A stretch of DNA of 64,000 bases from Psammoneis japonica. Lineage: Eukaryota. Of this stretch, positions 46,022 through 46,576 are shown one piece after another (within the stretch, counting starts at the first letter, position 1; every line of letters starts with the position of its first letter). The notes under the pieces were generated by a model. It ran no database searches, was not told the origin of the DNA, and saw only the letters and a program-made list of their open reading frames with translations. The stretch spans positions 1-64,000 of the forward strand of contig QPGO01000144.1 of the NCBI GenBank assembly GCA_008632985.1. The letters are read 5' to 3'. Made by a program: the position numbers and the translations under genes.

Positions 46022-46576
46022 GACGTGTTCCAGTCCTAGGTGACGCACAAAACGACAATCGGATTTTGAATGTAATTTATGCACGTTTTAGTGTGTGCAG
46101 CATTTTCATAAAAATGCTTGGACGGATTGACTTTTGTGGGCTTCTAGAGCATGAACATTTAAATGGTTTTTTGAGGGGCATTCAAATCCACATGGGATGT
46201 GCATCATAAACTTCCTCAGTAGACTCAATGCTGATTGTACGTCAGCAGATTTATGCTGAGATTTTTTTGTAGGTAGAAAACCTACCAAGTAGCATCGTAG
46301 AAAGACACATTTAGGTAACATCCAAACAACGGCAACATTTTCGCCGAAAATCATCCGTTGTGTTACGAATCTTTTAACGCAATGAAAAACATAGACAGCA
46401 CAATGACAATGATGTTGCAACACTCACACGAGTCTTGTCAGTGTTGCAAAACATTTGTGTTTGTATAAATCTATACTTTTGGTGGTGAAAGTTCGATCGT
46501 AAGTTAGGGACCGCGCAAAAATCGCGCAAATGTCGTTTTTGTGCATGATTTGGTTCACGTGCGGCTGGAACACGTC
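46022..46576 (+). mobile_element. MITE-A copy 4, least mutated, inserted in copy 3
   Basis: GACGTGTTCCAGTCCTAGGTGA...; TSD TTGT. Confidence 0.95.

Follow-up and report, generated by a model that had tools for sequence, protein, structure and literature searches.

The DNA analysed here, a stretch of 64,000 nucleotides referred to as the window, raises the question of why one copy of a transposon family carries TA dinucleotides where its relatives carry TG or CA, and in which direction those sites have changed. Across the window TA is found at an observed/expected ratio (o/e) of 0.12 (527 TA in 64 kb), together with CA at 1.70, TG at 1.62 and CG at 0.52; TC stands at 1.03, i.e., TpC is not depleted. 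The first-pass annotation took a three-way comparison of the MITE-A family to fix the direction, with TA ancestral and resolved independently to TG or CA.

The six coordinates and strings behind that claim proved exact when the sequence was re-read and copies c1, c2 and c3 were aligned. At the first named site, gattgTAcgtc in c3, the TA at 46238-39 is TG in c2 (22360-61) and CA in c1 (10862-63). At the second, aaccTAcc in c3, the TA at 46283-84 is TG in c2 (22405-06) and CA in c1 (10907-08). BLAST of c3 against the window found a fourth copy, c4, which is inverted and split, has CA at both named sites and is interrupted twice, by c3 and by a 1.3-kb insert (46603-47914). The MITE-A copies are the following.

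10646-11163, + strand: c1; 7 TA, 37-bp internal deletion, CA at both named sites
22144-22698, + strand: c2; 10 TA, GGAA duplications at 22140-43 and 22699-702, TG at both named sites
45845-46021, - strand: c4, 3' part; host copy of c3
46022-46576, + strand: c3; 555 bp, 27 TA, essentially undecayed, TIR GACGTGTTCCAG
46577-46602, - strand: c4, middle piece, between c3 and the B3/B4 insert
47915-48270, - strand: c4, 5' part; host copy of c3

Clean TTGT target duplications flank c3 (46018-21 and 46577-80), and TTGT is also duplicated around c1 (10642-45 and 11164-67). Because c3 sits within c4 with its 4-bp target duplication intact, it is younger than its host, in agreement with the earlier view of the TA-rich copy as the younger one. 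The number of TA is 7, 10, 27 and 9 in c1, c2, c3 and c4, and that of CG is 23-25 in all four. Pairs of copies differ at 50-73 positions, 43-66 of them transitions, and at 5-8 of the ~250 non-YR positions compared per pair. Both TG and CA are present among the other copies at 9 of the 27 c3 TA sites, and the TA/TG/CA pattern among the copies lies far beyond chance. Shared indels and substitutions group the copies as ((c1,c4),(c2,c3)). On this grouping the named sites require two steps from a TA root and three from a CG root; the ancestral TA is the part of the earlier claim that stood, and the part that did not is that these two sites, taken alone, fix the direction.

Self-comparison of the window identified a second family, MITE-B (~395 bp), with a TIR of the same type as that of MITE-A. 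It includes its own fresh, TA-rich copy, B1, with the role that c3 has in MITE-A.

25421-25813, - strand: B5; old, ~70% identity, 3 TA
37569-37963, + strand: B1; undecayed, TIR GACGCGTTCCAG, AGAG duplications at 37565-68 and 37964-67
45326-45713, + strand: B2; decayed, 10 TA
46817-47212, - strand: B3; decayed, 8 TA, half of the inverted B3/B4 pair
47398-47793, + strand: B4; decayed, 7 TA

The count of 27 TA for B1 was taken over the extracted stretch 37555-37985. A degenerate form of the TIR motif, GAYRYRTTCCAG, occurs 18 times in the window, always at element ends, against 0.14 occurrences expected; these TIRs and the 4-bp duplications flanking c1, c2, c3 and B1 are those of TIR DNA transposons (MITEs). 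An additional element, B6, has only its termini in common with MITE-B and was excluded from the counts. The element at 31185-31574 carries MITE-B termini around a different, fairly TA-rich 219-bp core (31283-31501) and may be a chimera or a sister MITE subfamily. The insert in c4 at 46603-47914 is an inverted MITE-B pair (46799-47212 versus 47811-47398, 92% alike). Since the similarity of this B3/B4 pair runs ~18 bp past the element ends, it represents an inverted duplication and not two transpositions.

With two families available, direction can be read from sites at which the copies disagree. A site was counted if each ungapped copy (at least three) had TA, CG, TG or CA there and at least two copies differed; positions with gaps or transversions were dropped, and for MITE-B so were B6 and columns outside 24-420. 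In MITE-A, 29 sites have both TG and CA, with TA kept at 9, CG kept at 1 and neither at 19. The MITE-B family has 22 such sites, with TA kept at 10, CG at 1 and neither at 11. TG and CA are two transitions apart and can be joined solely through TA or CG, and over the 51 mixed sites of both families TA survives at 19 and CG at 2. The holder of TA is c3 or B1 at every one of the 19, and CG is found at none of the 19 in the MITE-A and MITE-B copies of the window. A CG ancestor with TA arising by double deamination, the state of affairs opposed to the earlier claim, is therefore not what these sites hold. TA and CG co-occur at one site only in the whole count; column 455 reads CA/CG/TA/CA across the MITE-A copies.

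The pace of change per copy was taken against c3 for MITE-A and B1 for MITE-B, with B5 as the last MITE-B value.

TA sites changed: MITE-A 16/23, 18/27, 19/27; MITE-B 17/25, 19/25, 21/25, 24/25
CG sites changed: MITE-A 3/23, 3/25, 4/24; MITE-B 6/24, 5/24, 3/24, 11/24
Non-YR positions changed: MITE-A 8/243, 5/259, 8/260; MITE-B 7/188, 5/188, 3/188, 40/182

This amounts, for the copies in the window, to the tabulation of TA fates against other dinucleotides that the first-pass annotation had proposed: in the six younger copies 67-84% of TA sites are altered, compared with 12-25% of CG sites and 2-3% of non-YR positions. The changed TA sites of these copies end as TG or CA, save one or two cases per copy, and since different copies took these two outcomes independently, either strand is hit, as had been claimed. 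With CG this stable, its total loss at 19 sites followed by a second transition in c3 or B1 is not credible. Among the c3 TA sites that are fully decayed elsewhere, our own reading of the alignment finds 7-8 with the same sink in the other copies and 5 with a mixture. The same-sink sites, taken alone, would fit a gain of TA from CA in c3. Their share of ~50% is also the expectation if (c1,c4) and c2 decayed as two lineages. A gain in c3 would yield no mixed sites at all, and the mixed sites therefore speak against it.

The alignment of all genomic MITE-A copies, also proposed earlier, was approximated with Logan contigs of run X1, in which 87% of the sampled words of 46001-56000 are present. 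At least 80% likeness to c3 was found in 1262 contigs, which makes MITE-A a very abundant family; no contigs were aligned from runs X2 and X3. Relative to c3 there are 149 variant places with a share of at least 3% (A>G 39, T>C 38, C>T 24, G>A 22, transversions 26), counts that are only partly polarised, the polarised evidence being the Tyr to His or Cys changes described below. Context was mapped among the 40 of the 149 places listed, all with a share of at least 0.36, and 19 of them turn a c3 TA into TG (11) or CA (8). Each named site is represented by one letter, the first by 46238 T>C (share 0.51) and the second by 46284 A>G (0.47). The list of 40 out of 149 lacks the partner changes 46239 A>G and 46283 T>C, and within it both letters of a c3 TA appear solely at 46466-67. 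Because CG needs both changes, it is probably not a major state at the c3 TA sites, which is how far this approximation carries the proposed family alignment; going by the lowest listed share, CG at the named sites would stay under about 0.36. The TA states of c3 appear to be common to a large part of the family and not private to this copy.

The contigs also bear on the source of the family. At several TG or CA sites of c3 a TA-looking variant reaches a high share among the contigs (e.g., 46072 G>A, 0.62), so the master probably carried more TA than c3 does. Most of the family has CA at 46270 (share 0.75) and at 46500 (0.68), so either the master lineage is itself partly decayed or subfamilies exist. 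When metagenomes were scanned for a conserved 23-nt block of MITE-A, the one match was a chance one, in a bacterial ABC-transporter gene.

A coding remnant close to the nested MITEs allows a comparison with proteins from outside the genome.

44109-45278, + strand: decayed Ty1/copia-type pol remnant, delimited by tblastn with 16 relatives

A full HMMER scan with the open frame P0002 (44299-44784) found 848 relatives, and RVT_2 (reverse transcriptase of the Ty1/copia type) is present in three long ones; word-indexed protein searches gave no matches for P0001 or P0002. The 16 relatives of at least 600 aa, found among 150 of the 848, served as outgroups, and columns were used where at least 8 relatives covered them with at least 60% agreement (185 columns). 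At the nine columns where Tyr is conserved, the remnant has His at six, Cys at two, Phe at one and Tyr at none. Tyr is in fact absent from its ~410 codons, against 3.6% in the relatives. Other residues are retained, namely Phe at 8 of 10 columns, His at 6 of 7, Asn at 5 of 5 and Trp at 4 of 5. Leu has become Pro at 8 of 19 columns, mostly as CCA, which is expected from CTA, and Ile has become Thr at 3 of 6. Nine conserved Arg columns include three changes to Gln, two to Cys and one to a stop, and these show a separate CpG decay. In this way the outgroup proteins polarise both TpA loss and CpG decay from outside the genome.

A further repeat family in the window illustrates a later stage of decay.

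20540-21774, + strand: R1, one of three copies of a 1.3-kb repeat
35891-37208, - strand: R2, one of three copies
38737-40054, + strand: R3, one of three copies

R2 and R3 are inverted and 94% alike around a 1.5-kb spacer that received B1, a foldback-like structure. In the dinucleotide patterns of the three copies, 36 sites have both TG and CA among the copies and retain neither TA nor CG, the odd copy being R1 at 16, R2 at 10 and R3 at 10, and no site combines CG, TG and CA. Conserved in all three copies are 37 CG sites but only 6 TA sites. Transitions at YR steps account for 112 of the 124 singleton columns, and 12 fall outside them. The loss of TA is bimodal (6 sites fully kept, 11 partly and, by inference, ~48 fully lost), which no one constant rate can account for; contexts that resist change, or action in episodes, fit better. 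About three quarters of the inferred TA sites are gone, a proportion that is not a rate measurement. Apparent gains of TA and CG produced by per-column majority polarisation of the R repeats were discarded as an artefact of splitting TG/CA double differences.

Two young tandem duplications (~96% alike) lie in TA-free DNA, 3891-4533/4531-5172 and 22999-23187/23188-23376, and differ mainly by CG/CA and non-YR changes, a "post-erosion" mutation spectrum. The duplication at 3891-5172 was made in DNA already free of TA, and a single CA/TG site is found among its 20 differences, which indicates that mixed sites arise only where a duplication found TA present.

The erosion extends over nearly the whole window. 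Most kilobases have a TA o/e of 0.00-0.10, and the oldest carry 0-2 TA. With the fresh islands removed, the old DNA has a TA o/e of 0.08, a CG o/e of 0.48 and CA/TG at 1.66-1.73; the fresh islands stand at 0.65 for TA and 1.06 for CG. TA is at normal levels only in a few sharply bounded islands: c3, the 395-bp element at 37569-37963, a stretch at 31.25-31.5 kb and the region at ~52.6-55.55 kb. Erosion has reached the MITEs, the copia remnant and the anonymous DNA, and has passed over one intact gene and its flanks (52.6-55.55 kb).

52600-55550, - strand: TA- and CG-normal island, the unmutated reference state in the window; flanks TA-normal too

This is the sole gene-sized island in the 64 kb that is normal for both TA and CG. 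It holds an intact 601-aa ORF (53080-54885, - strand) without stops and with PLAT domains (Pfam). The ORF is intron-less, its N-terminus is signal-like, the PLAT domains form two stretches, and it has a weak language-model likeness (0.86) to the MACPF and thiol-activated cytolysin families; a word-indexed protein search found no sequence relative of it. The island escaped hypermutation either by protection or by recent arrival, a choice that turns on one gene. Elsewhere TAA and TAG are nearly absent, so open frames abound and ORF length is not evidence of a gene. All six reading frames of the window are unusually open, with 126 stop-to-stop frames of at least 130 aa, and just one of the 126 matched Pfam, with PLAT. 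An Rfam scan of the window found no families and no rRNA. The stretches at 15000-17000 and 42000-42750 have near-normal CpG (12-20 per 250 bp) and almost no TpA. Such CG-rich, TA-free DNA indicates that TA loss is not simply a by-product of CpG loss.

The products of the process are balanced and unordered. A hand sum over the seven copy comparisons gives 68 changes of TA to CA and 57 of TA to TG. Along the copies TG and CA follow each other at random (63 runs versus 67.4 expected, P = 0.22), and the R copies behave alike, so the hits are single events on either strand and not strand-coherent tracts. Flanking bases appear to matter. Among surviving TA, TTAA (75 in old DNA versus 18 in fresh islands) and CTAA/TTAG (56 versus 15) are enriched, and ATAT (0 versus 13) and ATAC/GTAT (1 versus 25) are nearly gone. 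The MITE copies lost TA at 18 of 19 RTAY sites, 71 of 99 mixed sites and 17 of 30 YTAR sites (chi-square P = 0.016, with copies that are not independent). A hand tally of R-TA-R and Y-TA-Y sites favours an edited A with a 3' pyrimidine by 45 to 26. Together these suggest that the A is hit preferentially when a pyrimidine follows it (RTAY > YTAR), a tentative result because residual TA in old DNA also includes new TA from the abundant TTG and CAA.

The timing looks uneven as well. Copies are either untouched (c3, B1) or eroded at 67% or more of their sites, and c3 and B1 each lack TA at just one site where another copy has it. This split is consistent with episodes, although it is not a rate measurement. 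That c3 is intact inside the eroded c4, to which it is 90% identical, indicates that repetition as such is not the trigger and makes the action look episodic.

Two histories would make the TA of the fresh copies a derived state. The named sites may have been CG, with methyl-CpG deamination giving TG in c2 and CA in c1 and c4 and a second hit giving TA in c3. CpG decay is real in this DNA, as its depletion in old DNA and the six of nine Arg columns changed to Gln, Cys or stop attest, a CG root is just one step costlier on the copy grouping, and column 455 does bring CG and TA together. Yet CG is retained at none of the TA-bearing mixed sites even though each copy lost so little of it, and CG is most abundant in c3 and B1. 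The step from TG to TA that must follow CG>TG is moreover an ordinary transition, and ordinary change has reached only 2-3% of non-YR positions; the one letter per named site among the listed contig variants also suggests that CG is in the minority there. A CG ancestor is very improbable. The alternative is that a RIP-like C>T change at CpA/TpG gave c3 and B1 their TA. Fungal RIP makes exactly this change, CpA to TpA, and the 7-8 c3 TA sites that face one and the same sink in all the other copies of the window would suit it. It offers no account of why the other copies have TG or CA at the same sites, and the old DNA is free of TA where it should be rich in it. The TA-normal island contains an intact ORF without stops, Tyr codons of the pol remnant became His and Cys codons, and the TA states of c3 appear to be widespread in the family. 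A gain of this kind has hardly any probability.

Two other readings keep the direction and change the cause. The event could fall on thymine, with T at TpA oxidised to 5-hydroxymethyl- or 5-formyl-uracil, which mispairs with G and yields T>C. Some protists modify their thymine, and the oxidised base is mutagenic. Balanced outcomes without strand runs are compatible with this route, and because TpA is self-complementary A>G and T>C are not separable by sequence. TpC is not depleted, and the only published proposal favours an ADAT2-like adenine deaminase (10.64898/2026.01.13.699255). A literature search found no paper joining hydroxymethyluracil, dinoflagellate and TpA. Dinoflagellate-type modification at TpA was accordingly left aside as unsupported, the spliced-leader motif being absent from the window as well, where one gene gives little to judge by. 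A thymine route is unlikely, if less remote than the histories with derived TA. Selection or biased gene conversion could also remove TA where no mutational bias exists, and mild TpA under-representation is common in genomes. The o/e of 0.00-0.05 over kilobases of non-coding, decayed DNA goes well beyond such a shortage, dead MITE copies resolve their sites independently, and the published mutation-accumulation data (10.64898/2026.01.13.699255) show raw mutation. Removal without mutational bias is extremely doubtful. Mutational loss of an ancestral TA, as the first-pass annotation had it, is thus upheld by the mixed sites (19 versus 2), the protein outgroups and the family-wide contigs, and the experiment in Bigelowiella natans is alike.

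That experiment used mutation-accumulation lines and described TpA hypermutation (Mettrop et al., bioRxiv 10.64898/2026.01.13.699255). Two integrated viral regions of B. natans (NCLDV and virophage) mutate ~1000-fold above the rest of the genome, in some lines only; of 231 mutations in the hypermutable regions, 230 are A>G or T>C, and every one of these lies at TpA. The report further describes a subgroup of coding sequences with a TpA frequency of 0.0018 and 124 clusters that are poor in TpA and rich in CpA+TpG and in which transposon and viral domains are over-represented. The proposed agent is an ADAT2-like adenine deaminase, and ADAR is cited there as preferring U before the edited A. In the literature searched this 2026 preprint was the one report of A:T>G:C hypermutation arising naturally at TpA in chromosomes, the remainder being papers on RIP, base editors and unrelated subjects.

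The likeness to the window is close. In both, TpA changes exclusively to TpG or CpA, with TpA depletion and CpA+TpG gain in the long term, and the action is local. In B. natans it falls on foreign or selfish DNA, leaves TpA in ordinary genes and is episodic or non-constitutive, and the window, with its one spared gene and its copies either untouched or heavily eroded, may be alike in these respects. The changes here are almost only A>G and T>C, and the mutated A is preceded by T. The signature thus equals that of B. natans and the kind of process is already known, its direction having been demonstrated there by experiment; likeness of signature is what would link the two systems. There are also differences. 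The targets in B. natans are viral inserts; in the window, anonymous DNA over tens of kilobases is hit along with MITE families and a copia-like remnant. Erosion is deeper here, with an o/e of 0.08 compared with a Rho of 0.45 in the NCLDV region. The parallel CpG decay, the flank context and the strand-run test go beyond the report, and a term search of the available text finds no occurrence of "MITE" or "CpG". (AC)n microsatellites, reported to be common in B. natans, are not enriched in the window, where there is one locus.

Other known systems resemble this one in part. Fungal RIP is also transition hypermutation that disables repeated and mobile DNA, leaves a dinucleotide signature and makes family copies differ nearly only by transitions. 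Its sign is opposite, however: RIP builds TpA from CpA/TpG by C>T, whereas here A:T>G:C destroys TpA, and repeats and old DNA accordingly have a TA o/e of 0.08 with CA/TG at 1.66-1.73, not the RIP signature. In addition, c3 is untouched within a 90%-identical copy, so that duplication alone is not the trigger. Methyl-CpG deamination gives the same TG and CA products from a self-complementary YpR step and is the second process in the window; it differs in its source dinucleotide and in being C>T, and it is slower here, with 12-25% of CG lost per copy compared with 67-84% of TA. ADAR hyper-editing of dsRNA and APOBEC3 action on viral DNA are deaminase-type defences with a 5'-neighbour preference, but they act on RNA or single-stranded viral DNA in strand-coherent clusters, whereas here chromosomal DNA is hit and TG and CA are random.

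The window very probably lies in DNA under locus-targeted hypermutation of TpA to TpG/CpA. The ancestral TA and the TG/CA products are direct results of the comparisons, targeting of chromosomal neighbourhoods is borne out in part, and the agent, by analogy, would be an enzyme that deaminates adenine preceded by T. MITE copies would arrive with normal TA content, as still visible in c3 and B1. An enzyme would then edit A:T to G:C at TpA in targeted chromosomal neighbourhoods, a single transition on either strand of the palindromic step giving TpG or CpA. Most TA would be lost in place, each site going to TG or CA at random, until old DNA ended nearly TA-free. The slower decay of CpG to TpG/CpA is a separate, parallel process. 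A more general reading, which we hold to be somewhat short of an even chance, is that this is an episodic defence against all mobile DNA and not viral inserts alone, acting on entire chromosomal neighbourhoods, RIP-like but of opposite sign and with a preference for RTAY over YTAR, in which the islands are protected or new genes; together with CpG decay it would drive most non-genic DNA TpA-free. On that reading, should the organism be other than B. natans, such a system would extend more broadly among eukaryotes than its one report implies.

New in this window are the targeting of MITEs, a TpA loss that is almost complete across tens of kilobases, the parallel CpG decay, the lack of strand runs and, possibly, the RTAY > YTAR flank preference. 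The window provides an independent, evolutionary-scale confirmation of the direction of TpA loss seen in B. natans, with transposons, both MITEs and a copia-like element, among the targets. The end state is visible as kilobases without TpA, and hence without TAA or TAG stops and without Tyr codons. Action on either strand without runs, the possible 3'-pyrimidine preference and the decoupling from CpG decay offer handles on the mechanism. In practical terms, an insertion can be dated by its TA content, and in genomes of this sort an island with normal TpA points to a live gene.
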